A DNA stretch of 47,252 bases from Methylococcales bacterium (GCA_036480195.1 JAZGGE010000302.1:1-47252); one strand, 5' to 3'; positions 1,764 to 32,983 are shown, counted from the first letter of the stretch. The notes: generated by a model from the sequence alone, not told the origin. A program made the numbers and translations.

Positions 1764-2277
1764 AGTGACACAAGCAATGCAAGCGTCTGCGGAAACCGAC
1801 GTAACCGCTGGAACAAACAACCAATACATGACCTTCGAACTGGCCGGTGAAGCGTATGGCATCGACATTCTGAAAGTTAGGGAAATCAAAGGCTGGGAAC
1901 CGGTTCGGGAAATTCCCAATACGCCGCCATTTATTCGAGGCGTTCTGGATTTACGAGGTACGCTAGTTCCCATCGTCGACTTGCGTGAACGGTTTGGTAT
2001 GGAGACTGTTGAATATACGCCGGTAACGGTGGTGATCGTACTTTCGGTGCTGGGTGATGGCGATGGGGATGAACGGGTTATGGGAATTGTCGCCGATGGT
2101 GTTTCAGATGTCCTGGATGTCAAACCGGAAACAATAAAAAAAGCGCCTGATCTGGGCGCGGGTATTGATACTCGATATATGAAGGGCATGGTGATGGGTA
2201 AGCAGATGATCATGTTGCTGGATGCGGATAAATTATTGAATCCGGAAGAATTTACGGTGCTGGACGATATTAGTTGA
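1744..2277 (+). CDS. cheW: CheW coupling protein
   Basis: CheW-like domain (YMTFELAGEAYGIDILKVREI...NTPPFIRGVLDLRGTLVPIVDLRERFG). The start is uncertain: ATG 1744 overlaps the MCP stop by 20 nt, and the alternatives are GTG 1765 and ATG 1777. The track start 1732 is less likely. Confidence 0.9.
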   Translation: MSGKISKVTQAMQASAETDVTAGTNNQYMTFELAGEAYGIDILKVREIKGWEPVREIPNTPPFIRGVLDLRGTLVPIVDLRERFGMETVEYTPVTVVIVLSVLGDGDGDERVMGIVADGVSDVLDVKPETIKKAPDLGAGIDTRYMKGMVMGKQMIMLLDADKLLNPEEFTVLDDIS

Positions 2278-2356
2278 GTGGAAACAATTGCAGAAATTAG
2301 CTGGATCGGCGGAGTAGGTAAAACTACTGTGCTGCAATACGGGTAAGGATTAGGTA

Positions 2357-2809
2357 ATGGCAGAAAAAGACAAAACAGAGAAAGTGAATGATCAGGATCC
2401 GCCGATGGCAAAAGATGAATCGGAACCGACCCAGCAACAGTTAGATGCCGAATCGCCGGTAGATGAAAGCACCGGAATTTCGGACGAAATAGCTGCGGTT
2501 GAGGGAGTGCTTATGGAATCCGCACTGGTACCCGAGAGACTGGAAAAAGTCATCTTACAGAAAACCAATAATATGCAAGGTGTGGCTGACCTCACTAAAA
2601 AGATTATTCATCTTATGGATAATAACGATGCGATTGAACTTGATGGATCTCAAGTAGATAGTATTGATACATCAACACTTCAGGTCTTGGTGGCGGCGGC
2701 ACGGGAGGCGAATCAACTGCATAAGGACTTCACCATAAACACGCCGTCTCAGAATTTTATTGATGCCGCTCGATTAGTGGGTGTTGCGGAAGATTTACTT
2801 ATTCAATGA
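2357..2809 (+). CDS. STAS-domain protein embedded in the che operon (acidic N-terminal region)
   Basis: The C-terminal ~90 aa look like a STAS/anti-sigma-antagonist fold (DAIELDGSQVDSIDTSTLQVLVAAAREANQLHKDFTINTPSQNFIDAARLVGV). The N-terminal ~60 aa are acidic and low complexity. The gene sits between cheW and cheR on the same strand. Confidence 0.65.
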   Translation: MAEKDKTEKVNDQDPPMAKDESEPTQQQLDAESPVDESTGISDEIAAVEGVLMESALVPERLEKVILQKTNNMQGVADLTKKIIHLMDNNDAIELDGSQVDSIDTSTLQVLVAAAREANQLHKDFTINTPSQNFIDAARLVGVAEDLLIQ

Positions 2810-2834
2810 TCGTTTACATACCTAGAGGGTCTTC

Positions 2835-3701
2835 ATGGCTAACGCGGTGAGAAATACGGAGCAAAGAACTGCGGTTCAGAAATCGCGGGAATTTGAATTT
2901 ACCTGGGAAGATTTCGATGTACTGCGAAAGCTGTCAAATGAGTATTCTGGGATTATTGTCTCAGATGACAAGTTCGACATGTTCTATTCCCGTTTGTCCA
3001 AGCGGTTGAGGACATTGGGTTTGAGCAACTTTCGTGAGTACGGCGCATTGTTGCAGACGAATCCAGATTCTGAATTTACTGAGTTTATCAATGCAATCAC
3101 CACCAACCTGACTGCCTTTTTCAGAGAAAACCACCATTTTGAATTTTTAAAGGAAACACTTTTACCTGAAATTCTACGTAGAAATGCAGCCAGCAGACAG
3201 GTACGAGTTTGGTCTGCGGGATGCTCAACGGGTGAGGAACCTTACTCCATTGCAATGACGCTTCTGGAGAATTTGCCCGAGGACTGGAACGCAAAGATTC
3301 TGGCGACCGATTTGGACACTCAGGTGTTGGCGACAGCCAGTCAGGGCGTCTATAACGAAGATCGGGTGTCCGGTCTTTCAGAAGAGAGACTAAACCGCTG
3401 GTTTATGAAGGGAAAGGGAGCCAACCAAAGTAAAGTAAGAGTAAAACCGGCACTTCAGAAACTCATTAGTTTCAACCAATTAAATCTAATGGGAGAGTGG
3501 CCCATGGTGGGACCGTTTGATCTTATTTTTTGCCGGAACGTCATCATCTATTTCGACCGGGAAACCAAAACGGAACTGGTCAATCGTTATGCCGACATCT
3601 TGGTGGATGGATCGTGTCTGTTTATTGGTCATTCGGAGTCGCTTAATCAGTTGACCGATCGGGTCAAGCTGGTGGGGAAAACCATTTATCGTAAAAACTG
3701 A
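2835..3701 (+). CDS. cheR: Chemotaxis protein methyltransferase CheR
   Basis: Carries the CheR N-terminal helical domain and a SAM-dependent methyltransferase domain (VRVWSAGCSTGEEPYSIAM, DLIFCRNVIIYFD). An AGAGGG RBS lies upstream. Confidence 0.95.
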   Translation: MANAVRNTEQRTAVQKSREFEFTWEDFDVLRKLSNEYSGIIVSDDKFDMFYSRLSKRLRTLGLSNFREYGALLQTNPDSEFTEFINAITTNLTAFFRENHHFEFLKETLLPEILRRNAASRQVRVWSAGCSTGEEPYSIAMTLLENLPEDWNAKILATDLDTQVLATASQGVYNEDRVSGLSEERLNRWFMKGKGANQSKVRVKPALQKLISFNQLNLMGEWPMVGPFDLIFCRNVIIYFDRETKTELVNRYADILVDGSCLFIGHSESLNQLTDRVKLVGKTIYRKN

Positions 3702-3710
3702 GGTATCGAT

Positions 3711-4346
3711 TTGACTAATAAAAGTCTATTGCCCCCGGCTCCCGCAGGCTTTGAACAGATTAAACGGCGTTGGGATAACAAAGAAGACTGTGTTACCGCG
3801 CAGATTTTACCGGGCGAATTTTATGTGACCCATGAAAACGAAAGAATCCTGACCGTGCTAGGGTCGTGTGTATCGGCTTGTATCAGAGACAAGGTTTTTG
3901 GTATTGGCGGCATGAATCACTTTATGCTTCCGCAAACATCCGAAGAAAGGCTCAAGGAAGGTAATGAAGCCGTAGTGGGTAATGCGACACGCTATGGTAA
4001 CTACGCTATGGAGCATCTAATCAATACGATCCTTGAGCGGGGAGGCAAGCGGAAAAATCTGGAAGCCAAGGTTTTTGGGGGCGGTAAGATAATTGCCTCG
4101 ATGACCAATATAGGATTGAAAAACATCGATTTCGTTTTGGACTATATTGATACGGAAGGCATTGATTTATTAGCCCAGGATCTGGGTGATATTTACCCCA
4201 GAAAAGTAGTGTACTACCCGACCACGGGGCGTGTTCGAGTAAAGAAGTTGCAAGATCTGCATGATAAGAAAATAGTCAGTAGAGAAATAGACTACGGCAA
4301 GACTATTAAGGATGCGCCTGTTGAAGGCGAGATTGATCTCTTTTGA
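3711..4346 (+). CDS. cheD: Chemoreceptor glutamine deamidase CheD
   Basis: CheD family motifs are present ([11 protein letters not shown] with the catalytic Cys, [16 protein letters not shown]). It has a TTG start with GAGG upstream. It ends ...EGEIDLF. Confidence 0.9.
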
Positions 4347-4365
4347 TTTTTGGACTGATTGGATA

Positions 4366-5445
4366 ATGTCAAAAATACGTTTATTGATTATCGATGACTC
4401 TGCTTTAATTAGAAAAGTGTTGACTGAAGTATTCAGTAAGTCAGCGGATATTGAAGTCGTTGGTACAGCAGCTGATCCCTATATAGCTCGGGATAAAATT
4501 AAAAAGCTGAACCCCGATGTGTTGACTCTCGACGTGGAAATGCCGCGCATGGATGGTTTGACGTTCCTGGGCAACTTGATGCGACTTCGGCCTATGCCCG
4601 TGGTCATGATTTCCACTTTAACGGAAAAAGGCGCGGATACGACGCTTCAGGCATTAGAGTTAGGCGCAATCGATTTTGTAGCCAAGCCAAAAATGGATGT
4701 TACCAGTTCCCTGGAAGCCTATGGTGAAGAAATTATTGGGAAGGTAAAGATGGCGGTGAAAGCCAAGCCGCGTGCTCTAAAGGTAGCATCTCCGAAACCG
4801 GCTGTAGTTGCCGGAACTGAAGAGAAGCTTTCAGCCGATGCTATTTTATCCAAAGGATCGGTAAAAAGACATTTTAAAACAACCGATAAGATAATTGCAC
4901 TAGGTGCGTCTACTGGAGGGACGGAAGCCATTAAGGATGTCGTGCGTGGGTTGCCGCTGGCAACACCGGGAATCGTGATTTCTCAACACCTACCCGCTCC
5001 ATTCAGCGACTCATTCGCCCGGCATGTCGATGCTGCCAGTGAAATGACTGCTTGTATCGCAGCTGATGGCCAGCAGGTTTTACCCGGAAATATTTATATT
5101 GCTCCTGGTGATAAACACTTGATGGTGGTTCGCGATGGTGCCCGCTATATTTGTCGATTAAACGATGGGCCACCAGTAAATCGTCATAAACCAGCGGTTG
5201 ATGTTATGTTCCGTTCAGTCGCTCAAAATGTTGGTTCCAATGCGATTGCCGTCATATTAACGGGAATGGGGGCGGATGGAGCCAAAGGCATGAAAGAAAT
5301 GAAAGACGCAGGTGCGCCAACCGTGGTGCAGGATGAAGATTCTTCCGTTGTCTGGGGAATGCCTGGTGAGGCGTATAAGTTGGGGTGCAATGACAATGTA
5401 GTTCCTCTCGATTTGGTGGCTCAAACTATTTTGCGACTGGCCTGA
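4366..5445 (+). CDS. cheB: Protein-glutamate methylesterase/deamidase CheB (REC + esterase)
   Basis: The receiver domain starts [12 protein letters not shown]... with [14 protein letters not shown]. The C-terminal CheB methylesterase has ALGASTGG and GMGADG. I prefer ATG 4366 over the track start 4312, which overlaps the cheD end and adds non-homologous residues. Confidence 0.93.
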
Positions 5446-5456
5446 TAAATAGAGTA

Positions 5457-6647
5457 ATGAAGTCAATTCTAATAGAACATATTGGAGCCATTGTTGCGAC
5501 TGCAGTAGTGGCTAGTCTAGTGGCTGTTGTCGAAGGAACGATTTGGCATATTGGTTTTGTACTGCTGTTGGCAATGGCCTGGATGACGAGTGCTTTGCGT
5601 GCGACTAACAGATTATCGGCATTCTTAAAACAGAATGAAAAACCTTCGGGTTCGACAGAAACCATCAGGCTTTTTATGGAAGAGGCTGAGCGGTGCAGCA
5701 CAGATCATATTCAGCAGATCAATAATGAGCTCGAGCAATTGAAGGCAGTCGTTGCCGATGGTGTTGGCACCATGAGTTCCAGCTTCAGTGGGTTAAATGC
5801 GTTGACATCGCAGCAAATGGAAATAGTGGCGTCCATGGTCACCCAGATTGCCGATACTGCCGACACCGATTCAGAGAGTACCAATTTTCAGGAATTTGCC
5901 GAGGAGACGGATCGGGTACTGAGGGAGTTTATCAGTCTTATTCTGATGACCAGCAAGCAAAGTATGGAAATGGTGAATCTTATCTATGATGTGGGTGAGT
6001 TTATGGACAAGATTGAGGTACTTTTAAAAGATGTTAAACAGATTGCGGATCAAACCAATCTGTTGGCGTTGAATGCGGCGATTGAGGCGGCACGTGCAGG
6101 GGAAGCAGGCCGAGGGTTTGGGGTCGTTGCCGATGAGGTTCGAAAACTTTCCAATCATTCCAATCGTTTTAGTGACGAAATTAGGGAGGTGATCGATGAT
6201 TCGAAAGTGAAAATTGAAGAAGCCAAGACTGTAATTGAGTCTATGGCTTCTAAGGACATGAACGTGGCGATTCGATCTAAATCTCGTGTTGAAGATATGT
6301 TAGCGGATATTGGTAAATTAAATAGCTTTTTTTCCGAGCGGTTAAGTGTAGTCACAGGAGTTACCGATCAAATCAACGAAAATGTGGGAATGGCTGTGCG
6401 AGCTTTGCAGTTTGAAGACTTGGCTCGACAGCTAATCGAGTATCTGCAAAAAAACAATGGAGAGTTTCAGGAGGTTATGGGAGAAATTAGAGCTACGATG
6501 AATAGTGCAGGAATGGAAACCGAAAATGATGGCGTTTGGGAAGATGGACGCCAACGATTAACGACGCTTAGGGCCGAGTGGTCGGCTCGGGCTTTAAGCC
6601 CGGTTAGCCAGAAATCAATGGATGAAGGCGAAATCGAGTTGTTTTAG
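5457..6647 (+). CDS. Short methyl-accepting chemotaxis protein (two N-terminal TM helices, no obvious periplasmic sensor domain)
   Basis: The N-terminus has hydrophobic helices ([17 protein letters not shown]; [16 protein letters not shown]). The MCP hairpin tip is [34 protein letters not shown]. It ends ...DEGEIELF. Confidence 0.88.
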
Positions 6648-15176: not shown

Positions 15177-15941
15177 CTATATTCTAAGAATGAGGCGACG
15201 ATGTGCGAGCTTTTTTAAAATCTCTTCACCCTTTCCGAGCAGTTGTTCTTGGGCTGGCATTCCTAGCTCTTCCGCAATTTGAGATATGACGGATTCTCCC
15301 GTTCTTTCTTCTTTCAATAAGTCCATCAAGCGGTGGGTGATTTGATTGATTTCTAGAAACCGAACGTTATCTTGGTCGTTTCGGTATACCGCCAAAAAAG
15401 TTGGAGAAGGTGGTGGCGCATCGGGTTGGTAGTCAGGAGAAATTCGGTGTACGGGGAATTGGTACGCTAGTGGCCAGGCCAGCCGAGAAAGCGTTATGTT
15501 GCAGCCCAGAGGGTCGGACAGCAGTTGCTCATCTGGCGAAGGTGTATCCCCTTCCGCAATGGATAGAGCCAGCTCTACCCATTCGTAATGGGCAAGTTCC
15601 AGTAAGAAAGGAGGATCAGTCGAAACAGGCGTTCTCTCATCCCGTAAATAAGCAATAAACTCTAGTGGAATTTCGGCAAAGTAAGGGGATTTGCTGCGGT
15701 GGTTAGTGAAAAATGTCCGGTTTAATGAGCGCCATTGATCGGCAGGTAATATTTTTCGCAATACTGGGAAATTGTTAGATAATAATCTTTCAATGTTATT
15801 GGCGAAAAGTCTCAGGTAGACTTCCATGCGCTTTCCATCGATACCCGCAGGTAACGGGTACTCTTCAGGTTTGCGTATGTGGTTGGTAAACGCAAATTGG
15901 ATCTGAATATAGGAAGGGGGTTTAGCCGAACCGGATTCCAT
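15177..15941 (-). CDS. DUF2063-family partner protein of an MNIO enzyme (HvfC/BufC/MbnC-like)
   Basis: It lies immediately downstream of, and overlaps, the DUF692 gene. The N-terminal region (IQIQFAFTNHIRKPE...RLFANNIERLLSNNFPVL) resembles the DUF2063 N-terminal domain. ATG 15941 is preferred over 15971. Confidence 0.7.
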   Translation of the reverse strand: MESGSAKPPSYIQIQFAFTNHIRKPEEYPLPAGIDGKRMEVYLRLFANNIERLLSNNFPVLRKILPADQWRSLNRTFFTNHRSKSPYFAEIPLEFIAYLRDERTPVSTDPPFLLELAHYEWVELALSIAEGDTPSPDEQLLSDPLGCNITLSRLAWPLAYQFPVHRISPDYQPDAPPPSPTFLAVYRNDQDNVRFLEINQITHRLMDLLKEERTGESVISQIAEELGMPAQEQLLGKGEEILKKLAHRRLILRI

Positions 15942-16770
15942 GATGTTGTTTCCACGATGCCTGGATACCACGAATAGTATTGACTTCTACTATTAGCTCA
16001 CTCAGAGAAGGAATATTAAAGTCACGTTCCAGGAGGGTTGGAAACACGCCGAAAAGTTCATACGCTCGGCCAAGAAGCTTCCAAACCGGGTCAATTATTT
16101 CAGCACCGTGGGTGTCAACAAGAAAATCTTCTTCCTCAACGTAGTGACCGGCGATATGGGCGTAGGCAATTCGTTCAGCCGGAATAGCGGAAACGAATTT
16201 TTCCGCATCGTAACCGTGGTTGACACTGTTTACGTAGATATTGTTAATATCAATGAGAAGGCCACAATCTGCTTCTTCAACGACTAGGTTGAGGAAATCT
16301 ATTTCGTCCATCTCTTTACCTGGTGCGACATAATAAGAGACGTTCTCGATGGCTATGCGTTGTTCCAGAATATCCTGAACACGTCTAATCCGTTGTGCGA
16401 CATAGTGCGCTGCTTCGAGGGTAAACGGGATTGGCATTAGGTCATACAGGTGCCCCTCGTCGCTGCAATAGCTAAGATGTTCACTATAAAGCCGGATATT
16501 ATGTTGCTTTAGAAAGGTTTTAAGGTTGATGAGAAATTCTTCATCCAGCGGTGCCGAGCTTCCGATCGAAAGAGAAAGTCCGTGACATATAAACGGGAAA
16601 CGTTCTGTTAGGGAACGAAACAGCTTTCCCCAACGACCCCCGATAAACATCCAGTTCTCGGGAGCGGCTTCAAAGAAATCTACCCCCGCAGGAACCGACC
16701 CGGCAACTTCAGCGAGGAAGGTTCGCCGAAGACCCAGTCCGGCACCTGTTACCGGGAGAAGGTTTTTCAC
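15922..16770 (-). CDS. DUF692 / multinuclear non-heme iron oxidase (MNIO; MbnB/HvfB/BufB family)
   Basis: UPF0276-type TIM barrel: GAGLGLRR, FFEAAPENW, SEHLSYC, IENVSYY, GLLIDINNIYVNSVNHG, AYAHIAGH and PTLLERD. The GTG start lies 8 nt after the precursor stop. Confidence 0.85.
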   Translation of the reverse strand: MKNLLPVTGAGLGLRRTFLAEVAGSVPAGVDFFEAAPENWMFIGGRWGKLFRSLTERFPFICHGLSLSIGSSAPLDEEFLINLKTFLKQHNIRLYSEHLSYCSDEGHLYDLMPIPFTLEAAHYVAQRIRRVQDILEQRIAIENVSYYVAPGKEMDEIDFLNLVVEEADCGLLIDINNIYVNSVNHGYDAEKFVSAIPAERIAYAHIAGHYVEEEDFLVDTHGAEIIDPVWKLLGRAYELFGVFPTLLERDFNIPSLSELIVEVNTIRGIQASWKQHHGIRFG

Positions 16771-16778
16771 GATTGTGG

Positions 16779-17345
16779 TTAGTTATTCATTACTCCGCAG
16801 TTCCCTTCAGTACCTTTCATGTCCATGCTACCACCGGCTTTCGAATTGTTTTTATCCATACCGCCAGCCATATCCATTCCTTTCCCACCTTGCTGATTTT
16901 TTCCATTGCCTTTATTGCCCTGTTTCATATCTCCATTCATGTTGTCCATACTCTTCATGCCATCCATACTTCCCATATCCTTCTTATCCATCATACCCTT
17001 CATCTTTTTCATTTTTTTCATCATTCCTCCGCATTGACCATCCATTTTCTTCATCATCCCGCCATCCATTTTCATACCACCGGATTTGCCTTCCATGTCT
17101 GATTTCTGTGTAGTAATGCGGTTGTTTACAGATCGTTGAACATGTTTCGCCCGTTTCGGCTTTTCACTATTAGTTTCTTCACTATTCGACATTCCTGCTT
17201 GAGAAACGGTCATGTATCCTCGGTCGAGATCACTAATTGCAAATGGATTTTTAGTTGCATCGGCTATCGCTGTGCCACTTAATGTTGAGACGATGGCGAT
17301 GCCGAGAGAAGTAGTTAACGATTTCTTATGGAATTTTGATTTCAT
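16779..17345 (-). CDS. Sec-exported, Met/Gly/Lys/Asp-rich protein with two [DE]-G-x-C-G motifs; candidate MNIO substrate (HvfA-like RiPP metallophore precursor)
   Basis: Signal peptide MKSKFHKK-SLTTSLGIAIVSTLSGTAIA/DA, followed by KNPFAISDLDRGYM. The last 107 residues contain 24 Met by my count, with no His and no aromatic residues. There are only two Cys: DGQCGG (codon 17031-17033) and EGNCGV (codon 16797-16799, 5 residues from the C-terminus). An AGAGG RBS is present. It is the first gene of the operon with DUF692 and DUF2063. Confidence 0.75.
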   Translation of the reverse strand: MKSKFHKKSLTTSLGIAIVSTLSGTAIADATKNPFAISDLDRGYMTVSQAGMSNSEETNSEKPKRAKHVQRSVNNRITTQKSDMEGKSGGMKMDGGMMKKMDGQCGGMMKKMKKMKGMMDKKDMGSMDGMKSMDNMNGDMKQGNKGNGKNQQGGKGMDMAGGMDKNNSKAGGSMDMKGTEGNCGVMNN

Positions 17346-18195
17346 TGTGTTATGCCTCTAGCAGGTTGTGTTGACCAAGGAATTTAAGAAGTTGTCTGCG
17401 AACAGAAAGTCTTCTGGTTGATTCGCTCTTTTTATGTGAAAGGTCTCCGTTCCATGTTGAGCTGGCGGTAGCACATCCCCGGATAATATGCACTGTTCCT
17501 TCAATATTAGGTTTCAATTATATTGCTTACGACGATGCTTTACCATCCTAAACTGATTTTTCTCTGGTTTTGATAGGATTATTTATCAAAAAATTGCTGA
17601 AAAGTTTGTGGTTTCTGGGAATGCGTCGCCGTTAAATCAATCACCTACCCTGTTGTCATGCCTTGAAGACGTACAAATTCTTGTGAGATCTGGGTGGAGT
17701 ATTTATTGTGAATCACCTAAAGCCGCTTTACCAATGGTTTTCCTACGTTGGATAGGCGTTAGGTAACTGGCATAAACCAGAATCGATGGGTTGATTGTCG
17801 ATATTGTCCAATCGTATTCAAACTTATCGCTCCACAATCTATTTTTTATTTTTATACCATACGTGGGAAGACGCTTCCAAAAATATATTGATTTTTACAC
17901 AAATAAAGTGAGTAAAATTAACTCAAGGATATGTTTCAGTATCAATAAAATATGTATATTCGCTAAGGATTCTGCGGATCACGTATTTCATTAAAAATGG
18001 ATAGATTGTTAATGGTAATATCATTTCTAATTATCTATAACTTTATGAAAAATATGTTAGTCATACACCTGAGTGGTTACTTGTAAGGTGTCCAGGAGCT
18101 TGCAATGGCGAATATTGCATTAAAAAAAACTTGGTGAATTCGACTAATGATCGGTTTCGTCTATTCCAATATATAATCAGTTAGGAGGTATGGCC

Positions 18196-22162: not shown

Positions 22163-25100
22163 ATGGAATCTAGTAAATCACCCAATGAGATGGCATCCTC
22201 AAAAAAACATTTCAGTGATGAACCCATTGCTATCACTGGAATGGGATGTAGATTTCCCGGAGGCGCAGAATCACCGGAAGCATTCTGGAATCTTATTAGT
22301 CAGGGTAAGGATGGCATCGTTGATGTTCCGCGAGATCGGTGGGATGTTGATCGGTACTATGATCCAGATCCCAACAAACTGGGAAAGATGTACGTGAAAT
22401 CAGGTGGCTTTCTTGATCAGAGAATCGACCAATTCGATGCCCTGTTTTTTGGTGTATCTCCGAGAGAAGCTGCTTGCATGGATCCTCAGCAGAGAGTGTT
22501 GCTCGAAGTGGCTTGGGAAGCGATGGAAAATGCCGGGATAAATCCTGAGAGATTGCGAGGTAGCGAAACCGGTGTATTTATAGGTGGGTTTATGCTCGAC
22601 AATAACCTCACCCAAATGAATGTACTGAATAGGGATATGATCGGCCCGCATTCCGCGCTAGGGTCGACGATGACTATTCTTTCAAATCGTTTGTCATATG
22701 TATTCGATTTTCGCGGCCCGAGTGTGTCAATGGATACAGCGTGTTCTTCGTCTTTAGTTGCTCTACACTACGGATGTCAGGGTTTGTTAAATGGGGATTG
22801 TTCGGTAGCGTTGGTTGGTGGTGTCAATATTATGCATCGGCCTGAAAACCCAATTGCAATGTGCAAAGGACAGTTCTTATCTCCTGATGGTCGCTGTAAA
22901 AGCTTTGATTCAAGGGCTGATGGATACGGTCGTGGCGAAGGCGCGGGTATCGTTATCCTAAAAACGCGATCGGCCGCAATTCGTGATGGCGATGAAATTC
23001 ATGCGATTATTCGTGGAACAGGAGTCAATCAGGATGGCCACAGCGATGGAATCACTGTTCCCAATCCTGAATCACAACAAGAACTGATGCGTAAGGTATT
23101 TTCAGAAGCTAAAGTCGATCCCCGGCAGATTTGCTACATGGAGGCGCACGGAACCGGTACTCCGGTGGGCGACCCTTTGGAAGCCGGGTCTCTTGGGGCC
23201 GTGTTGGGGAAGGATCGCGGCTCAGAAAATCCCTGTGCGGTAGGATCTGTCAAAGCTAATATCGGTCACTTGGAAGCGGCTTCAGGAATCGCCGGGGTAA
23301 TTAAACTGGTGCTCTCTCTGCAACATAAACAGATACCACCGTTGGCAAACTTAAAAATGCCCAATCCGAATATTCCATTTGAAGAACTAGGGCTTAGACT
23401 TCCTATGTCACTCGAGTCAATGCCCTCAGGCAGTGAACCTGCTCTGGTTGCCATTAATTCATTTGGGTATGGTGGAACCAACGCTCACGCCATTCTTCAA
23501 GAAAACACAATTGAAAAGACGGAAATCTCGGAATCTCAAGAATTAACAGACGCAGATCCTTATCTGTTGCCACTCTCTGCAAAGAGCGAATCGGCAATGA
23601 AGGAACTTGCCAGTCGCTATTTGGAGAAAATAGACGCTGTCGATAGTCCTTCGTTGAGAGATTTGTGTTATTCCTCAAGTGTACATCGCGGGCATTACGA
23701 TTATCGATTAGGTGTGATCGCAAATACGATGGACGAAGTCAGAGACCAACTAAAAGACTTTGTCGATGGAATCGATAATGGGTCGCCGTCATTGGCGAAA
23801 GCGTTACCGGAGTCTACTAACAAGCCGGTATTTGTTTTTACTGGAATGGGGCCGCAATGGTGGGCTATGGGAAGGGAATTGCTAGACATTTACCCAGTTT
23901 TTCGGTCTGAAGTCGAACGTTGTGACAAGATTTTTACCAACCTGGCGGGGTGGTCGATTTTGCAAGCGATGTTAGCGGACAAGGAACTCTCAAATATTGC
24001 GGATACCGTTGTTGCACAACCGGCAAATTTTGTTTTACAAGTGGGATTAATAGCGCTGTGGCGATCTTTTGGTGTGGAACCGGCTGCAGTTATCGGTCAC
24101 AGCGTAGGTGAAGTAGCTTCTGCTTATATAGCGGGCGTTTTGAGTCTCGAAGATGCGATTAAGGTTAGTTATCATCGCAGTCGCGTTCAAAAGAAAGCAG
24201 CCGGGCTTGGAGGAATGCTAGCTGTCGGCCTTACAAAAAAAGAAGCTGACAAAATACTTGAAGATTACTACGGAAAAGTCTCTATCGCAGCGATTAATAG
24301 CCAATCAGCATTGACGTTGGCTGGGGATCAGCCTTCACTATCAAAAATTGCAGAAGCTTTGGAAGTGGACGGCGTTTTTAATCGATTATTGAAAGTTGAG
24401 GTTCCCTATCATAGTCCGTTAATGGAGCCGTTGAAGGACGAAATAAGATCGAGTCTTAGTGGACTAGAGACACGAGAGCCGAGTATACCGTTGTATTCCA
24501 CGGTAACTGGAAGGCTGATCGAGACGGCTAGTTATGATGCAGACTATTGGTGTCAAAATATTCGAGAGCCCGTCTTTTTTTCTGACACGATAAACACGAT
24601 GATAGAAGCAGGTTATCGACTTTTTGTTGAAGTGGGTCCTCATCCGGTATTGTCGACATCGATCAAAGAATGTCTGATGGGCCGAGGGAGTCAGGGAGTC
24701 GTTTTAACGTCGCTGCATTGTGAGAAACAAGAACAGAGCACCTTAATGCAGGCGTTAGCGAATCTGTATGCTGCTGGCTATTCACCGGATTGGAAACGCC
24801 TCTATCCAGACGGTGGAAATTTCATCTCCCTTCCCAACTATCCTTGGCAACGTGAAAGTTATTGGAATGAAACCGAAAAGGCATTGTTAGATCGCATCGG
24901 ATTGGAGCGGGTGAGTTTCTTGGGGGATAGTGTAAGATCGCCAAATCCTTGCTGGGAGAATACTCTTAACACCAGTACGTTACCATTCTTGGACGACCAC
25001 TATGTCGATGAATTACGGGTGTTACCGGGCGCTGCGTACGTTGAAGCCGGGTTGATGATACATGAAAATACAATCAACGATTCGGTTCCCGTACTGGAAA

Positions 25101-28100
25101 ATTTAGATTTCCATAATGCACTGGTGATCGATGATAGTGATGATCCCACGATTTATTGCTCTTTCGATCCAGAGTCACAAGTTTATCATGTTCATAGTCA
25201 TTCAAAAGTATCCGCAAGCCCATGGAGGCTACATGCCTCAGGTCGGTTATGCCGAACGCTTTCAGGGTCGCCTCCTCCGGTAAATTTAGAGGAGCTAAAA
25301 GCTTCATTGTCGGAATATATATCCAGTGATATGCACTACCAACGGATGAATGCTCGGGGTTTGGATTACGGTCCATATTTTCAAGGGGTACGTGAATTAT
25401 GGCTTAATTCTGATCGATCCAACGTCTTGGCGAAGATCGAAGGGCATAAAGATTTGGTGAGAAGCAAGGATCAGTATTTGCTGCATCCTACCTTGTTGGA
25501 CGCTTGCTTCCAGACATTATTGACGACCCTGGATGAAGGTGACGAAAATATTTACGTACCTGTCCATATTGATCGTGTTCATTTTTATTCGAGTCCGGAA
25601 AAAACATTTTGGTGTCTGGGGAGTATTAAGCGATGTCAAACCGGAATGATCGAAGGTGATCTGACTTTGTGCGACACCAATGGCACCGTATTGGTCGATA
25701 TTCGAGGTGTTCGTGCAAAGGCACTGACGAATAATACGGATGTTCTTGTAAATGCTCACCAGTGGACCTACCAATTCGATTGGAAACAGGCAGAGTTACC
25801 CGACACCTTTGAAAAACCGGAACGGGTTCTTCTATTTAAGGACGAAGGAGAAACAGGGAGACAATTGGTCGATCAGTTTAATGGTCGGGGTGCTCAGGAA
25901 ATTGTTACGGTAAAAGCAGCAGAAGCTTTCTGCTGTGACTCTTCGACGCACTATGGAATTCGTCCTGGACATAAGGAGGATATGCAGCAGCTGATAGCAA
26001 ATTGCAACGGATCGGGTTTCAGCCATATTGTTTATCTGTGGCCTCTTAACGCAAAATCGCAACAGCGCCCAATAACGGATTCGACTGATCTTGTTACTTG
26101 CCTGTATTTGATTCAGGCTTTGACCCAATTTCAAGGTAATAATCCGCCTCGTTTGGTTGTTGTAACCCAAGGAGCACAAGCAATTAGTGCCACTGAGTCC
26201 ATTGCTTCATTAGATCAAACGCCATTGTACGGATTGATCAGGGTAGCAATGAACGAGAATCCGGAGCTATCGTATCGCTTGGTCGATCTAGGCCCGGAGC
26301 TAACCGCCAGTCTATCACAACAGCTAGTTGACGAATGTCTGGCTGACGGTGGAGATGAGGAGGTCGTCTTACGTGATTCTGGGCGTTTTGTTCACCGATT
26401 TAATCGGATGGCGCTTAGCGATCCAAACGCCGAGATTGACGAAGACCAGCCCACTGCAGTCTCAATTAACCGACCTTATCGATTGGAAATCGACGAATCT
26501 CGAGATATTGGTAGTCTTCGATTCAGAGAAAACGTTCGTTCAAAGCCACAATCGGAAGAAGTCGAGATCGAGGTTCATGCGGCCATGCTCGATACGATCG
26601 ATGTTCTAGCAAGCCAACACGATATTATTACTGGTACTGGCACCGAGATTATTTTGGTCGGCCGAATTTGCAGAATTGGAGATTCTGTTGGTTCTTTGAA
26701 GGTCGGTGACTCAGTGGTCAGTATGACGGATAATCTAATCGGTTCCTTTATTACCAAGCGCTTTGAAACCGTGTTTTCATTCCCGGCACTGAAGAACTTT
26801 GATTTTGAAGCGTGTGCGACGATTCCTCTGGATTTTGTAACCGCTTTTCATGGTCTTTTCCAAACCGCCCGGATCAAGCGTAGAGAACGCATCGTGATTC
26901 ACGATGCGGCGAGTGCAACGGGCTTGGCGGCGATTCAAGTAGCGCGTTGGCAAGGCGCAGATATTTATGCAACTGTTAACAACGAGAATCAAAAAGATTA
27001 TCTTCTCGCGTTAGGCATTAAACACGTATGGTTGTCGGATCCGATTTTATCTTTTGACAGTATATCAAAGCTCACGTTGGGCAAGGGCGTGGATGTTGTC
27101 TTTAATAGTGGATCAGTGGAGCTGGCCAGAAAAAGCATTGCTTTATTGGCTCCGTTTGGACGGATTATAGTGACTGATAAAAACGAATCGGTTTTACCGA
27201 GCTTCGAGATGGGGAATGTCAGCTCGAATATACAAATCATCAACATTGACATCGCCGGTATGATTATTGAGCAGCCGAATTTATTCAAGAACTTGCTTAA
27301 TCAGGTTTGTAATCATATTAACGCTTCTGACTTTACCCCCCTACCGTATACGTCGTTCACCTCACGTCAAGTCATTAAGGCGTTTCAATACCTCCAGGAT
27401 GACGAATCACCAACCAAGGTGGTTCTCAACCTACGTAGTATCCCAGCAATATCGATTTACCGAAAAATTGAGAAAACACCACTATTTTCCGAGAATGCCA
27501 GCTATCTAATCACCGGTGGGTTTGGAGGGTTTGGGCTATCAACGGCGGCTTGGATGGTCGAAAATGGTGCCCGAAATTTAGTCTTGGTGGGCCGGAGAGG
27601 GGCCGCCACCGATGAGGCAAAACAAGCTGTGCAGTCGATCGAGTCGAAAGGTTGCAAAGTTCTTTCGTTAGCAGTCGATATCTCTGAAGAAGCCCAAGTC
27701 GTCAAATTGTTCGCGAGTATTGCCAAAAGCTTACCGCCTCTGAGGGGTGTCATGCATACGGCCGCAGTACTTGATGATGGACCCCTTAATTATTTAACAA
27801 AAGATCAATTCGATCGCGTGATGGGCCCTAAAGCGCTAGGTGCTTGGAATTTGCATCAACATTTATCCGATTCAACGCTGGATTTTTTCTTTCTATTTTC
27901 CTCAATCGCGTCGCAAGTGGGAAGTCCTGGTCAAGCCACTTATGTTGCGGCCAATACGTTCCTCGATGCTTTGGCACAATTGCGAAACGCGCAAGGATTG
28001 ACGGCAACGAGCATCCAGTGGGGTGCGCTGGGTGATGTTGGTATGGCTGCTCGTCATGAAGAGGTCAAACAATACTTCGCCCGGGTTGGCATTAATTCTC

Positions 28101-28720
28101 TATCGCCTAAACAGGCAGTGAGTATGTTGGGTAGGTTACTGCCAAAATTGCCCGAGCAGATTGCAATAGCCGATATGAATTGGGAGAAATGGGGAGAATT
28201 CAATCCGGTTTGGGCCGGATCCCCTCGATTCTCTCACCTTGTTTCTGAACATGCTGATCTGGAGCCAGCGGTTTCTACAAATAAATATATTCAGCAAATA
28301 TTAGCAGCAACAGCAGACGCTAAACCGAAAGTTGTGACGGATCTAATCGCCGAGGAAGTTGCTCGGATATTACGTTTACCCATTGATAAAGTTGAGATCG
28401 ATCAGTCGCTCGCCAACATGGGGGTCGACTCTCTACTGGCAATGGAATTGCAGACGGCGATAAAGCAGAATTTCGGAGTCAACATATCAACCTTAGAGCT
28501 AATGAAGGGCAACACACTAGCTCAAATTGGTACGCAAATTCAAGAGAAGATACCGATTTCAATAGGTTCGTCAAAATCAACTGCGGATGCGTTGTTGCTC
28601 CCGGAAGAGACAGAAGTAGAAAACAAAGCTATCCAGCCGGATGATGTCGATGCACTATCAGACGACGAAGTAACGACTTTATTAAACGCTTTATTATCGA
28701 AAGAGGAGGTTCCTCAATGA
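22163..28720 (+). CDS. Type I polyketide synthase, single fully reducing module KS-AT-DH-ER-KR-ACP (MAS-like architecture), no loading domain
   Basis: Approximate domain spans are by my residue count.
- KS (~22223-23500): DTAC194SSS, EAH329GTGT, NIGH369LE.
- AT (~23825-24742): GHS647VGE, VEVPYHS.
- DH (~24905-25732): LDDH946YVDELRVLPGAAY, YGPYF, LLD1113ACFQ.
- ER (~26471-27433): EVEIEVHAAMLDTIDV, VIHDAASATGLAAIQVA.
- KR (~27497-28042): ITGGFGGFGL, LDD motif, Y1927VAAN.
- ACP (~28310-28537): GVDS2090LLAMEL. Confidence 0.93.
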   Translation: MESSKSPNEMASSKKHFSDEPIAITGMGCRFPGGAESPEAFWNLISQGKDGIVDVPRDRWDVDRYYDPDPNKLGKMYVKSGGFLDQRIDQFDALFFGVSPREAACMDPQQRVLLEVAWEAMENAGINPERLRGSETGVFIGGFMLDNNLTQMNVLNRDMIGPHSALGSTMTILSNRLSYVFDFRGPSVSMDTACSSSLVALHYGCQGLLNGDCSVALVGGVNIMHRPENPIAMCKGQFLSPDGRCKSFDSRADGYGRGEGAGIVILKTRSAAIRDGDEIHAIIRGTGVNQDGHSDGITVPNPESQQELMRKVFSEAKVDPRQICYMEAHGTGTPVGDPLEAGSLGAVLGKDRGSENPCAVGSVKANIGHLEAASGIAGVIKLVLSLQHKQIPPLANLKMPNPNIPFEELGLRLPMSLESMPSGSEPALVAINSFGYGGTNAHAILQENTIEKTEISESQELTDADPYLLPLSAKSESAMKELASRYLEKIDAVDSPSLRDLCYSSSVHRGHYDYRLGVIANTMDEVRDQLKDFVDGIDNGSPSLAKALPESTNKPVFVFTGMGPQWWAMGRELLDIYPVFRSEVERCDKIFTNLAGWSILQAMLADKELSNIADTVVAQPANFVLQVGLIALWRSFGVEPAAVIGHSVGEVASAYIAGVLSLEDAIKVSYHRSRVQKKAAGLGGMLAVGLTKKEADKILEDYYGKVSIAAINSQSALTLAGDQPSLSKIAEALEVDGVFNRLLKVEVPYHSPLMEPLKDEIRSSLSGLETREPSIPLYSTVTGRLIETASYDADYWCQNIREPVFFSDTINTMIEAGYRLFVEVGPHPVLSTSIKECLMGRGSQGVVLTSLHCEKQEQSTLMQALANLYAAGYSPDWKRLYPDGGNFISLPNYPWQRESYWNETEKALLDRIGLERVSFLGDSVRSPNPCWENTLNTSTLPFLDDHYVDELRVLPGAAYVEAGLMIHENTINDSVPVLENLDFHNALVIDDSDDPTIYCSFDPESQVYHVHSHSKVSASPWRLHASGRLCRTLSGSPPPVNLEELKASLSEYISSDMHYQRMNARGLDYGPYFQGVRELWLNSDRSNVLAKIEGHKDLVRSKDQYLLHPTLLDACFQTLLTTLDEGDENIYVPVHIDRVHFYSSPEKTFWCLGSIKRCQTGMIEGDLTLCDTNGTVLVDIRGVRAKALTNNTDVLVNAHQWTYQFDWKQAELPDTFEKPERVLLFKDEGETGRQLVDQFNGRGAQEIVTVKAAEAFCCDSSTHYGIRPGHKEDMQQLIANCNGSGFSHIVYLWPLNAKSQQRPITDSTDLVTCLYLIQALTQFQGNNPPRLVVVTQGAQAISATESIASLDQTPLYGLIRVAMNENPELSYRLVDLGPELTASLSQQLVDECLADGGDEEVVLRDSGRFVHRFNRMALSDPNAEIDEDQPTAVSINRPYRLEIDESRDIGSLRFRENVRSKPQSEEVEIEVHAAMLDTIDVLASQHDIITGTGTEIILVGRICRIGDSVGSLKVGDSVVSMTDNLIGSFITKRFETVFSFPALKNFDFEACATIPLDFVTAFHGLFQTARIKRRERIVIHDAASATGLAAIQVARWQGADIYATVNNENQKDYLLALGIKHVWLSDPILSFDSISKLTLGKGVDVVFNSGSVELARKSIALLAPFGRIIVTDKNESVLPSFEMGNVSSNIQIINIDIAGMIIEQPNLFKNLLNQVCNHINASDFTPLPYTSFTSRQVIKAFQYLQDDESPTKVVLNLRSIPAISIYRKIEKTPLFSENASYLITGGFGGFGLSTAAWMVENGARNLVLVGRRGAATDEAKQAVQSIESKGCKVLSLAVDISEEAQVVKLFASIAKSLPPLRGVMHTAAVLDDGPLNYLTKDQFDRVMGPKALGAWNLHQHLSDSTLDFFFLFSSIASQVGSPGQATYVAANTFLDALAQLRNAQGLTATSIQWGALGDVGMAARHEEVKQYFARVGINSLSPKQAVSMLGRLLPKLPEQIAIADMNWEKWGEFNPVWAGSPRFSHLVSEHADLEPAVSTNKYIQQILAATADAKPKVVTDLIAEEVARILRLPIDKVEIDQSLANMGVDSLLAMELQTAIKQNFGVNISTLELMKGNTLAQIGTQIQEKIPISIGSSKSTADALLLPEETEVENKAIQPDDVDALSDDEVTTLLNALLSKEEVPQ

Positions 28721-31700
28721 ACAATATGCACGCGCATTCAGCTGATTTGTCGAGTGAGGAGAAACGCCGCTTGCTGGCTTCACTGCTTGATAAAAACGCG
28801 AGGGTTGGCTCAACGGGAAAAGAGAACTTGTCCTTATCTTCAGGCCAAAAAGCCCTATGGTTCTTGCATCAGAGCGCCCCATATAGCTCCGCCTATCATA
28901 TCGCATTTGCGTTACGTATTCGCTCTAACTTTAGGGTTGATGCGTTGCAAAGTGCTTTTCAGGCACTTGTTGATCGACATCCAATGCTACGTTCGAAATA
29001 TGCAGTGGAAAACGGTGAACCGATACAACGAGTCTACGAACAAGAGGAAGTGTGCATCGAACGGATCGATGCGTCAGGTTTAACCGAGACTGACTTAAAG
29101 TCGAAAGTAACGGAATCCTATGAGCGACCTTTCGATCTAGAAAGTGATCGGTTGATTCGAATGACTTTGTTGAGTCGAGAGCAAGACGATCATATTCTTC
29201 TACTCACGGTTCATCATATTGCTTTCGATGGTTGGTCGTTGTGGCTTTATCAAGATGAATTGAAAAAGCTATATTGCGCGGAGCTTGCGGGGATACCGGC
29301 CAAGTTGCCCGAAGTAAGTGTTTCTTACTCCGATTTTATTCTTTGGCAACAGGGCTTTCTGGCGGGTGAAGATGGTGAAAAGCAATGGGAATATTGGCGA
29401 AACCAACTCGCTGATGTTGAACCCGTTTTGAATTTACCGTTGGATAAATTACGCCCTGCCACTCAGTCTTATGCGGGCGCGTCGATTCCATTTGAACTGG
29501 AATCGACGTTGGCTAAAAGGTTAACAACAGTGGCTCAAGCACAAGGTGTGACGCCGTTTACACTCTATCTTAGTGCTTTTCAGGTTTTGTTATCTCGCTA
29601 TACTCGGCAACAAGAGATTCTAGTTGCTTCTCCGACAACGGGTCGAACCGAAAGCCAATTTTCACAGGTTGTTGGCTATTTCGTTAATACAGTGGTCTTA
29701 AGGGGGGATCTATCAAATAATCCAACCTTTTCGGAATTTTTGCAGCGTACTCGGGATACCGTTTTGGAAGCGTTGGAGCACCAAGATTTCCCCTTTTCGG
29801 TACTGGTTGAACGTTTGCAACCACAGCGAGATCCAAGTTATTCACCCTTGGTGCAAACCTCTTTCGTTTTACAGAAGCCACAACAGTCTTCGGCCAATCA
29901 CTTAGTACAAGGGAAAAACAGTACCCCTCAAACCTGGGGTGATATGGAGGTAACGGTCTATAACATTAATCAGCAAGAAGGGCAATTTGACCTTGAGTTG
30001 GAAATGCTGGATAGAGGCGATGGGTTGAAGTCAGTCATTAAATACAACACCGATTTATTTCATAAGGAAACTATTGAGCGGATGACGGGTCACTTCAGTT
30101 CACTATTAGTGGGCATTGCAAGTAATCCGCAGCAACGCATAACAGATATCCCACTATTAACCCTCGACGAAACGGAAGAATTACTGATCCGATGGAACAA
30201 CACCGATTACCACTATTCGGATAATGCTTGTCTGCAAACCTTGGTGGAGCGTCAGGCTAAAAAAACCCCAGACAATACAGCCGTTGTTTCTGAAGATAAC
30301 ACGCTGAGCTACCGCGATCTTAATTCAGACGCAAATCAACTGGCTCATTATTTAAAAAACAAAGGTATTGGCCCTGATGTGGTGGTCGGAATCTTTGCAC
30401 AACGCTCGATCGAAATGGTGGTCGGTTTACTAGCCATCTTAAAAGCGGGTGGTGCGTATCTTCCATTGGATCCCGAGTTGCCGGATGACCGGATTGCCTT
30501 TATGTTGCAAGATGCCAAAGTTAATGTTGTGCTGACTCAAGAGGACTTGGCCGGGGATCTTGCGGTATATAACATCGATATCGTCTGTTTGAACGCGGAT
30601 TGGATTGAAATTTCAAAGTGTAATTCTGAGAACCCGAGCATCGAAACAACACTGGATGATTTGGCCTATGTCTTGTACACCTCGGGATCAACCGGTCAGC
30701 CTAAAGGTGCCATGAATACTCATCGAGGTATCAGTAATCGGCTGTTATGGATGCAACAAGTCTACCGACTCATGGAAACGGATCGTGTGTTGCAGAAGAC
30801 GCCTTATAGTTTTGACGTCTCGGTTTGGGAATTCTTTTGGCCTTTACTAACGGGTGCGCAACTGGTGATGGCCAGACCGGGAGGACACAAGGATTGCCGA
30901 TATCTCATCGAAACCGTTATTGATCAAGGTATTACGACGATACATTTTGTGCCTCCCATGCTGCAGCTATTTGTCGAGGAGAATGATGTTGAAAACTGTA
31001 GATGTCTGAAACGAGTGATCTGTAGCGGCGAAGCCTTACCGATCGAATTGCAGACACGATTCTTTTCGAAACTGTCAGCTGAGCTGCACAATCTCTACGG
31101 CCCAACGGAAGCCGCGATCGATGTTACCTTTTGGGAGTGCGATTCCCACACTTCGTTAGACTTTATTCCCATTGGCCGACCGATTGCCAATACTCAGATT
31201 TATCTCCTTGATGATGGACTCAATCCAGTCCCCATTGGTATTCCAGGCGAGCTTCATATTGGTGGTGAAGGTTTGGCAAGAGGTTATTTAAATCGTGATG
31301 AATTGACGGCAGAAAAATTTATCACCAATCCCTTCGATAATAGTGGCCAGTCAAGGTTATACAAAACCGGGGATCTGGCGCGATTCATGAGCGATGGGAA
31401 TATCGAATTTTTGGGTCGTATTGATAACCAGGTAAAAATTCGAGGTTTTCGTATCGAACTCGGAGAAATCGAAACACTACTATCGCAGTTTTCCGGTATT
31501 CAAGAAACCGTAGTATTGGCGAGGGACAGCGGTCGGGCCGAAAAATGCTTGGTGGCGTATGTCGTGTGCGAGCGTGACCAGACGCCGACACCATCAATAC
31601 TACGGGAATATCTTGGAAAAAGCGTACCAGACTATATGATTCCCAGCGCATTTGTTTTTCTCGAAGCCATGCCGCTAACGCATAACGGTAAAATTAATCG

Positions 31701-32940: not shown

Positions 32941-32983
32941 GATCACGTCATTTGTTTTGGAAATTTAGACTGGGGAATTAATT

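Follow-up and report, generated by a model that had tools for sequence, protein, structure and literature searches.

A captophorin-type operon of a Methylococcales bacterium with a Met-rich, two-Cys precursor

Results

A captophorin operon with an unusual precursor

We analysed a 47,252-nucleotide stretch of DNA from a Methylococcales bacterium (GCA_036480195.1 JAZGGE010000302.1:1-47252; the whole stretch is referred to below as the window) and found that three genes at positions 15177-17345 of its minus strand are a FonABC/HvfABC-type operon for a ribosomally made, post-translationally modified peptide (RiPP), belonging to the Lys-Cys group of captophorins and lacking a DoxX gene. The enzymes and the kind of operon are known; what is new is the precursor, which has only two Cys residues and a tail packed with Met. 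Such a precursor is an undescribed variant, and it probably still binds copper(I). Weighing the evidence laid out below, we consider it reasonably probable that the locus works as a captophorin operon whose Met-rich, two-Cys precursor is modified and serves in periplasmic Cu(I) buffering or hand-over.

An open reading frame (ORF) scan placed the precursor, the MNIO (DUF692) enzyme and its DUF2063-type partner one after the other on the same strand (Table 1), with 8 nt between the precursor stop and the MNIO start and an overlap between the MNIO and partner genes of 20 nt if the partner begins at its ATG, or 50 nt if it begins at an upstream GTG. A preliminary description of this DNA had claimed the same co-oriented layout, an 8-nt junction followed by an overlap, and the ORF coordinates bear it out. 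Independent gene calling on a 565-kb metagenome contig (ERZ25073254:ctg89597) returned the same three genes, with the partner start that gives the 254-aa version. As the identical precursor protein is present on five contigs from separate assemblies, its sequence is not an assembly artefact.

Promoter and terminator scans found no internal promoter-like or terminator-like sites on the coding strand of the operon. The AT-rich intergenic region of 844 bp that separates the precursor gene from a divergent GDSL-lipase gene was searched by the same scans, for inverted repeats and against Rfam; no promoter-like, operator or RNA element was found in it, and the inverted repeats that it holds are weak. 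The genomic context of the locus includes this lipase gene and suhB, and the 47-kb window contains no DoxX, copper-related, msr, oxidative-stress or regulator genes, and neither pmo nor mxa genes. The strand opposite the Met-rich gene carries a pair of His-rich ORFs, 109 and 112 aa long, that overlap each other; they are mirror artefacts, an ATG being read as CAT from the complementary strand, and could mislead gene callers.

Table 1. Coordinates of the operon, of the parts of its precursor and of other features in the window.
Feature	Position	Strand	Description
Precursor gene	16779-17345 (stop codon included)	minus	188 aa ORF; divergent FonA/HvfA-like captophorin precursor
hvfB/fonB-type MNIO gene	15922-16770	minus	282 aa; GTG start
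hvfC/fonC-type partner gene	15177-15941	minus	254 aa from ATG at 15941; alternative GTG at 15971, 264 aa
Shine-Dalgarno-like AGAGG	17355-17359	minus	9 nt 5' of the precursor ATG; read directly from the sequence
Sec-type signal peptide, residues 1-28	17262-17345	minus	MKSKFHKK, hydrophobic core, AIA/DA cleavage site; by inspection and alignment with relatives
Conserved segment NPFAISDLDRGYM, residues 33-45	17211-17249	minus	Follows the signal peptide; candidate HvfC docking region
Met/Gly/Lys/Asp/Asn tail, residues 82-188	16782-17102	minus	Proposed Cu(I) thioether-binding region
Module copy EGKSGGMKMDGGMMKKMDGQCGGMMK, residues 85-110	17016-17093	minus	Methylococcales module EGKCGxMMxxGKMKKGMExxCGxMMK; Cys-to-Ser at residue 88
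DGQCG, residues 102-106	17028-17042	minus	Predicted modification site 1, Cys105; fits the [ED]GxCG consensus
EGNCG, residues 180-184	16794-16808	minus	Predicted modification site 2, Cys183
Intergenic region	17346-18189		Precursor gene to divergent GDSL-lipase gene
His-rich ORFs	16773-17113	plus	Mirror artefacts
Hybrid biosynthetic cluster	22163-36053	plus	See text
Chemotaxis cluster and feoA-feoB fusion	3-6647 and 41872-44412		See text

The enzymes are of the HvfBC/FonBC type

The MNIO protein scored 428.1 bits against the NCBIfam model of the HvfB family (NF003818, curated cutoff 360) and 343.7 bits against PF05114, and it fell below the cutoffs of the BufB, ApyH, ChrH and MbnB models. Its partner scored 298.7 bits against the HvfC model (NF050145, cutoff 142), 84.7 bits against PF09836 and 103.6 bits against PF22106, and comprises an N-terminal DUF2063 domain and a C-terminal domain of the NGO1945 type, which resembles a RiPP recognition element. 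The earlier identification of the pair as an MNIO with a DUF2063 partner is thus upheld by hidden Markov model scores above the curated cutoffs. Compared with the sequences of the characterised Fon, Ngo and Hvf systems (taken from the supplement of PMC13097082), the MNIO is 62% identical to FonB, 49% to NgoB and 45% to HvfB, and the partner is 44% identical to FonC and approximately 29% identical, over a partial alignment, to HvfC of Haemophilus influenzae.

When the MNIO was aligned to the solved homologue 3BWW, the blocks HGLSLS, EHLS, ENVSYY, DINNIYVN, HIAGH, VDTHG and LLERDFN were all found to be conserved, and its DINN and DTH residues are the equivalents of HvfB N175, D242 and H244, which are essential iron-site residues. 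It also has R15, R16, D250 and F251, the counterparts of FonB R15, R16, D249 and F250, which are the selectivity determinants of the EGKCG-type (Lys-Cys) enzymes (PMC13097082). The MNIO and its partner are ordinary members of a very large known family.

As to chemistry, the preliminary description had named oxazolone/thioamide as the product of HvfBC and had set it beside the thiooxazole of bufferins. This framing in terms of two products is out of date, because HvfBC is now assigned 5-thiooxazole products in place of oxazolone/thioamide, and the class bears the new name captophorins (PMC13097082; bioRxiv 10.64898/2026.06.05.730506). The 5-thiooxazole chemistry is established for fontiphorin, gonophorin, oxazolin and bufferins (PMC13097082; 10.64898/2026.06.05.730506; 10.64898/2026.07.17.739211), and from their family membership the HvfBC enzymes of the window would likewise convert Cys to 5-thiooxazole.

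The precursor combines two Cys motifs with a Met-packed tail

The precursor has 27 Met residues, 24 of which fall within its last 107 residues alongside 25 Gly, 19 Lys, 11 Asp, 10 Asn and a remainder that includes Ser and Gln; His and aromatic residues are entirely lacking from this tail, and the Met residues occur in MxM, MMxxM and MDxM patterns. By comparison, Met makes up a median of 2.35% of the residues in the 28 other large ORFs of the window, none of which has more than 10 Met in a 107-aa stretch, and the binomial probability of at least 24 Met in 107 residues, at p=0.03, is approximately 1e-14. The only Cys residues are C105 (DGQCGG) and C183 (EGNCGV), and five residues follow the latter. 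Counting therefore confirms the composition, the Met patterns and the Cys positions that had been claimed for this protein, and inspection and alignment with relatives support its Sec signal peptide; the relatives with which this region aligns are described in the literature as Sec-exported.

EGKCG is absent from the precursor, which has a single EGKSG and, separated by 78 residues, two solitary [DE]G[QN]CG motifs; positions 1, 2, 4 and 5 of the DGQCG motif satisfy the requirements of FonB. A single-sequence AlphaFold2 model was mostly disordered (mean predicted local distance difference test, pLDDT, 50.7), with one helix at residues 97-121. If these residues are helical, Met and Cys105 would lie on one face and Lys on the other, and the resultant of this helical-face arrangement is 0.67, versus 0.22 +/- 0.11 in shuffled sequences (p ~2e-4). 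Such a Met-lined face with Cys105 is only suggestive because of the low confidence of the model.

The precursor is a divergent member of the HvfA/FonA family

Neither Pfam nor NCBIfam returned a family match for the precursor. This includes NF050137 (KCGExKCG_twice), to which it had no match even at E<=10 and against which typical relatives score 23-49 bits. A word-indexed search with the precursor recovered only itself, and an exhaustive phmmer search of 1.84 billion representatives was needed to reveal its family: 19 matches with E values of 2e-6 to 1e-3, all of them secreted HvfA/FonA-like precursors. The preliminary description had called the protein HvfA-like, which agrees with this homology and finds no counterpart in the NCBIfam HvfA model.

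A signal peptide, an NPF.M.EL..GYM segment and then EGKCG-type motifs are common to all 19 matches, and a segment of the NPF..GYM type is found in 107 of the 160 related loci described below. The experimentally studied FonA, whose pairwise E value with the precursor is 0.001, carries SVFQASDLGAGYM (given also as VFQASDLGAGYM) at the place of this segment; H. influenzae HvfA and NgoA do not have it. The earlier suggestion that a KNPF...L..GYM segment is shared with HvfA-like proteins and acts in recognition therefore holds for its conservation, while the recognition role is not established: no single pre-core position of FonA is essential for modification (PMC13097082), and HvfA without its N-terminal region is still modified (PMC11252979). 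We infer that the NPF..DL..GYM segment is a candidate docking region for HvfC.

Many relatives carry a module of the form CGEGKCGxMMxxGKMKKGMExxCGAMMKGKEGxCG. HMMER scoring was unusable for detecting it in the precursor owing to composition correction, and we instead scored an ungapped position-specific scoring matrix against composition-preserving shuffles. Residues 85-110 scored 32.1, versus -14.6 +/- 7.2 for the shuffles (z=6.5), and none of 5000 shuffles reached this score; the significance lies in the 26-column core only, neither the entire module of 38 columns nor its last 14 columns by themselves being significant. In this alignment C105 is kept, and S88 stands where a Cys has been replaced, leaving EGKSG as a relic of EGKCG.

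Judged by its sequence, the precursor is a divergent member of the HvfA/FonA family, demonstrably derived from it and not an orphan, and these data support its being the cognate, secreted substrate of the adjacent HvfB/HvfC-type enzymes. It appears to descend from the Met-rich, multi-Cys HvfA-like precursors of Methylococcales, having lost all but two Cys and gained Met.

Cys motifs and Met-rich sequence are combined across the clade

Scans of species-representative genomes and JGI metagenomes with HvfB as the query yielded 160 related loci (individual loci and contigs are designated here by L numbers) at 64-76% identity; neither scan returned anything closer than 76%, and none of the loci from the genome scan had flanking genes in common with the window. 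The great majority of the named relatives belong to Methylococcales (Methylobacter, Methylomarinum, Methyloprofundus, Methylomonas and Methylovulum). The 104 complete upstream precursors have a median of 7 Cys and 11% Met in their mature part, and median Met content is 11.8% at loci with a Methylo- label versus 6% at the others. Long GM/MK-rich stretches broken by EMSCG are found in L024, L029 and L037, with up to 44 Met and 13 Cys in 271 aa. The [ED]GxCG context surrounds 635 of the 818 Cys residues of the relatives and both of those in the window precursor, and EGNCG itself occurs 15 times among the relatives. No DoxX-like gene was detected next to Methylo-labelled loci within the flanks that were fetched.

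Given these medians, the combination of Cys motifs with Met-rich sequence is a theme of the whole clade and not a peculiarity of the window, whose precursor is the low-Cys extreme: its Met/Cys ratio is 13 versus a maximum of 5 elsewhere, and its Cys count of 2 is the lowest among the relatives (a tie). The preliminary description had presented the union of enzyme-installed Cys ligands with a Met sponge as something not previously described. We found no thiooxazole RiPP paired with a Met-rich domain in the literature searched, and neither the MNIO landscape paper nor the captophorin paper (PMC13097082) was found to mention Met-rich precursors; among Methylococcales-type relatives, however, a mix of Met and Cys is normal.

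A search with HvfC uncovered a sister lineage, represented by contig L163 (ENA ERZ27237539 k141_478487), whose HvfC is 80% and whose HvfB is 91% identical to those of the window and whose downstream gene is different. At 2.3 kb, it was the only contig that extended upstream of hvfB, and its precursor is known from the C-terminal 98 aa alone (positions 3-299), which include 20 Met, 1 Cys and an expansion of GGMMGGMGGMGGMGGMGNMNGG. The C-terminus EGNCGVMNN is identical in the two precursors. Their last nine codons differ by three synonymous and no non-synonymous changes, compared with 60 synonymous and 27 non-synonymous differences between the HvfB codons. Small as these numbers are, they suggest that the terminal Cys motif is under purifying selection and that the low-complexity tail is drifting.

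Several relatives show features of their own. The HvfB of L163 has Tyr in place of the selectivity Phe of the window enzyme and FonB (ERDYN versus ERDFN). Another low-Cys relative, L014 (3515-3883), has 2 Cys and 12 Met in 122 aa and reads KEGASG where relatives have KEGACG; because this too is a change from Cys to Ser, Cys has been lost more than once in the clade. In a Methylomarinum metagenome-assembled genome (OZ255706.1, 609949-629489), two whole hvf loci, L037 and L038, lie approximately 10.7 kb apart and encode identical precursors of 245 aa with 34 Met, reflecting either a recent duplication or an assembly repeat. The precursors of L053, L066 and L137 have EF-hand-like inserts of the DADGDGKVSKQEF...DANGDGFIDGKE type between their EGKCG motifs, which match the Buf_EGKCG|EF-hand chimaeras of PMC12452194. 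In L003, L014 and L021, which are of the Methylobacter type, a conserved, small lipoprotein-like gene (signal peptide with GCSDD lipobox, DPFDHSH..., four Cys) lies on the opposite strand 3' of hvfC, and rnfB-like and nth genes lie upstream; none of these genes is present in the window.

Comparison with known systems

The closest characterised system is that of the Fontimonas thermophila fontiphorin, a captophorin of the Lys-Cys group (PMC13097082). FonABC is likewise a three-gene A-B-C operon without DoxX, its enzymes share the identities given above and the Arg, Asp and Phe selectivity residues with those of the window, and in FonA a signal peptide is followed by F..SDL..GYM. The two precursors differ in that the 7 Cys of FonA lie in tandem EGKCG repeats and its core is essentially free of Met, whereas that of the window has two solitary motifs and its 24 Met in 107 residues. 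The HvfABC(X) system for oxazolin of nontypeable H. influenzae (PMC11252979; modification revised in 10.64898/2026.06.05.730506) belongs to the same NCBIfam enzyme families and shares a Sec-exported precursor and an MNIO with a DUF2063 partner; its conversion of Cys-Gly sites and its Cu(I) binding (PMC11252979) are what we would predict for the window system too. It differs in its lower enzyme identities, in the DoxX gene (HvfX) of the hvf operon and in HvfA itself, which has a disulfide instead of the NPF..GYM segment and carries three AEGKCGEGKCG repeats.

The Met-rich HvfA-like precursors of Methylococcales (for example L024, L029, L037 and L003), of which we found no description in the literature, share the signal peptide, the NPF.M.EL..GYM segment and the module with the window precursor; their loci have an HvfB that is 70-76% identical and no adjacent DoxX. 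They differ from it in retaining 6-17 Cys, with Met/Cys ratios no higher than 5, and their genomic context is also different, with rnfB-nth upstream in place of the GDSL lipase and suhB genes.

Bufferins (BufABC; PMC11626156, PMC12452194) resemble the window system in pairing an MNIO with a DUF2063 partner and in the Sec signal peptide of their precursor, and their 5-thiooxazole copper ligands and periplasmic copper buffering are what we would propose here as well. The locus was nevertheless rejected as a bufferin: the precursor matches neither DUF2282 nor Buf_6/12Cys, and the MNIO reaches only 266.5 bits against the BufB model (NF050167, cutoff 310). Methanobactin (MbnABC) similarly depends on an MNIO and a partner that turn the Cys residues of a ribosomal peptide into copper ligands, but its chemistry is oxazolone/thioamide, and it is secreted and re-imported and is induced by copper starvation. 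Methanobactin was also rejected, with 49.5 bits against the MbnB model TIGR04159 (cutoff 325) and a signal peptide on the precursor instead of an MbnA-type leader.

The SilE/PcoE sponge (PMC5008109), the Met-rich domain of CueO (PMC11494321) and the Mets motifs of Ctr1 (PMC9117721) are largely disordered sequences, located in the periplasm or outside the cell, that are rich in Met and bind several Cu(I) or Ag(I) ions by thioethers with spacing of the MxM/MxxM type. None of them is similar in sequence to the window precursor, SilE and PcoE use His together with Met, unlike the His-free tail, and none is known to be paired with a modifying enzyme or to carry thiooxazoles. Membership in SilE/PcoE was rejected on account of this absence of His and of any Pfam match at E<=1.

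Other features of the window

The hybrid biosynthetic cluster listed in Table 1 encodes a type I polyketide synthase (KS-AT-DH-ER-KR-ACP, 2185 aa), a nonribosomal peptide synthetase module with a thioesterase (C-A-T-TE, 1407 aa), an MMPL/RND-type transporter and a LolA-like protein, and is probably a lipopeptide or lipid export cluster. The remaining two intervals hold a chemotaxis cluster, with a methyl-accepting chemotaxis protein (MCP), CheW, STAS, CheR, CheD, CheB and a second MCP, and a fused FeoA-FeoB. The chemotaxis genes and this ferrous iron transporter look ordinary and unrelated to the captophorin locus.

Discussion

A model for modification and copper binding

In the mechanism that we favour, the precursor, hvfB and hvfC genes would be co-transcribed, and in the cytoplasm a complex of HvfB and HvfC would bind the precursor, probably through the NPF..DL..GYM segment and the [DE]GxCG motifs. 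As expected of this enzyme family, the complex would oxidise Cys105 and Cys183 to 5-thiooxazoles, each by a four-electron step with a mass change of -4 Da. The product would be exported by Sec and cleaved by signal peptidase after AIA and, to go by its composition, its largely disordered tail would bind several Cu(I) ions in the periplasm through Met thioethers. Because oxazolin binds approximately one Cu(I) per pair of modified Cys (PMC11252979), the two thiooxazoles would be expected to provide one high-affinity Cu(I) site; they may pair with each other, closing a 78-residue Met-lined loop, or each may pair with a neighbouring Met. The likely role would be periplasmic Cu(I) buffering or hand-over. 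Characterised relatives do bind Cu(I) (PMC11252979; PMC13097082), and binding of Cu(I) or Ag(I) by Met-only motifs or Met-rich domains is established for Ctr1 (PMC9117721), CueO (PMC11494321) and SilE (PMC5008109).

A number of observations weigh against this model. Of the short peptides offered to FonBC in vitro, one with two repeats was modified and one with a single EGKCG repeat was not (PMC13097082), and both Cys motifs of the window precursor are solitary. FonBC tolerates Ala, Arg and Thr at motif position 3, and the Gln and Asn found here lie outside the variants tested. In addition, the precursor failed the NF050137 test and has no tandem EGKCG repeat, the Met-faced helix comes from a low-confidence model, neither a copper-related gene nor DoxX is found across the window, and any link to methanotrophs would be drawn only from the taxonomy of the nearest HvfB/HvfC homologues.

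Alternative explanations

Part of this evidence would also fit a substrate relation in decay, in which the Met-rich protein is a genetically encoded Cu(I)/Ag(I) sponge comparable to SilE/PcoE or the CueO insert that needs no modification, and HvfBC is residual or serves a precursor encoded elsewhere. The fall in Cys count from a median of 7 to 2, the EGKSG relic, the parallel Cys-to-Ser change in L014 and the failure of FonBC to modify a single-repeat peptide all agree with such a history, and unmodified HvfA already binds 2-3 Cu(I) (PMC11252979). However, hvfB and hvfC are intact, with every conserved block present, and their translation is coupled to that of the precursor gene; both remaining Cys still have the complete [DE]GxCG context; and the C-terminal Cys motif is invariant in two lineages, with synonymous changes only. 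The conservation of EGNCGVMNN together with a Met-rich tail in L163 argues against simple decay, which we judge unlikely, if deserving of attention. That the Met-rich ORF arose by chance in low-complexity DNA, as its His-rich mirror ORFs on the opposite strand might suggest, is almost inconceivable given that its N-terminal 50 residues are homologous to FonA/HvfA-like precursors, that it has a Shine-Dalgarno-like site and the 8-nt junction with hvfB, and that the same gene was called on five contigs. Its tail and C-terminus are moreover conserved, apparently under purifying selection, in the second lineage, and this conservation and the family homology effectively refute a chance origin.

Two further explanations concern what the tail is for. 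An exposed, disordered tail with 22% Met could be a sacrificial sink for periplasmic oxidants, with HOCl or H2O2 converting Met to sulfoxide for repair by Msr and the thiooxazoles being incidental or redox-active, and responses to oxidative stress, in addition to metals, are reported for MNIO-PME1 clusters (PMC13097082; PMC11252979). We hold this role to be quite improbable: there is no msr or oxidative-stress gene nearby, all characterised relatives bind copper, and the i, i+3, i+4 spacing of Met, which would put them on one helical face with Cys105 (p ~2e-4), fits pre-organisation of ligands better. A role in copper acquisition or delivery as a chalkophore-like molecule or chaperone, in place of detoxification, would for instance supply particulate methane monooxygenase in a gammaproteobacterial methanotroph that has no methanobactin. 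This accords with the nearest named HvfB/HvfC homologues all being Methylococcales, with Met enrichment being strongest at the Methylo-labelled loci, with the absence of mbn operons from many gammaproteobacterial methanotrophs (PMC3621798) and with the chalkophore role raised for oxazolin (PMC11252979). Yet pmo, mxa and copper genes are all missing from the window, the neighbourhood encodes neither an export nor a re-uptake system, and the captophorin clusters studied so far respond to copper excess and not to starvation, which makes acquisition, too, a decidedly doubtful alternative to the modified, copper-buffering captophorin.

Implications

The same enzymes are kept here beside a precursor with two Cys and a tail of approximately 22% Met, and among the relatives an entire clade, for the most part Methylococcales, has Cys motifs together with Met-rich modules. 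The locus also shows that real captophorin precursors escape filters based on Cys count and the HvfA model of NCBIfam. A more speculative view, and a rather unlikely one at present, is that Methylococcales-type captophorins form a graded series in which thiooxazoles are progressively replaced by encoded Met thioethers. The window precursor and L163 would be its end-member, with two thiooxazoles clamping a Met-lined loop for several Cu(I) ions, and the family might be the missing chalkophore-like component of periplasmic Cu(I) handling in gammaproteobacterial methanotrophs without methanobactin. If thiooxazoles and thioethers do cooperate, the precursor would embody a hybrid design for metal binding, partly installed by enzymes and partly encoded genetically, and would provide a natural series in which to ask how much thiooxazoles contribute in addition to Met. 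The locus also gives a testable lead on how methane oxidisers that lack methanobactin may handle copper in the periplasm.

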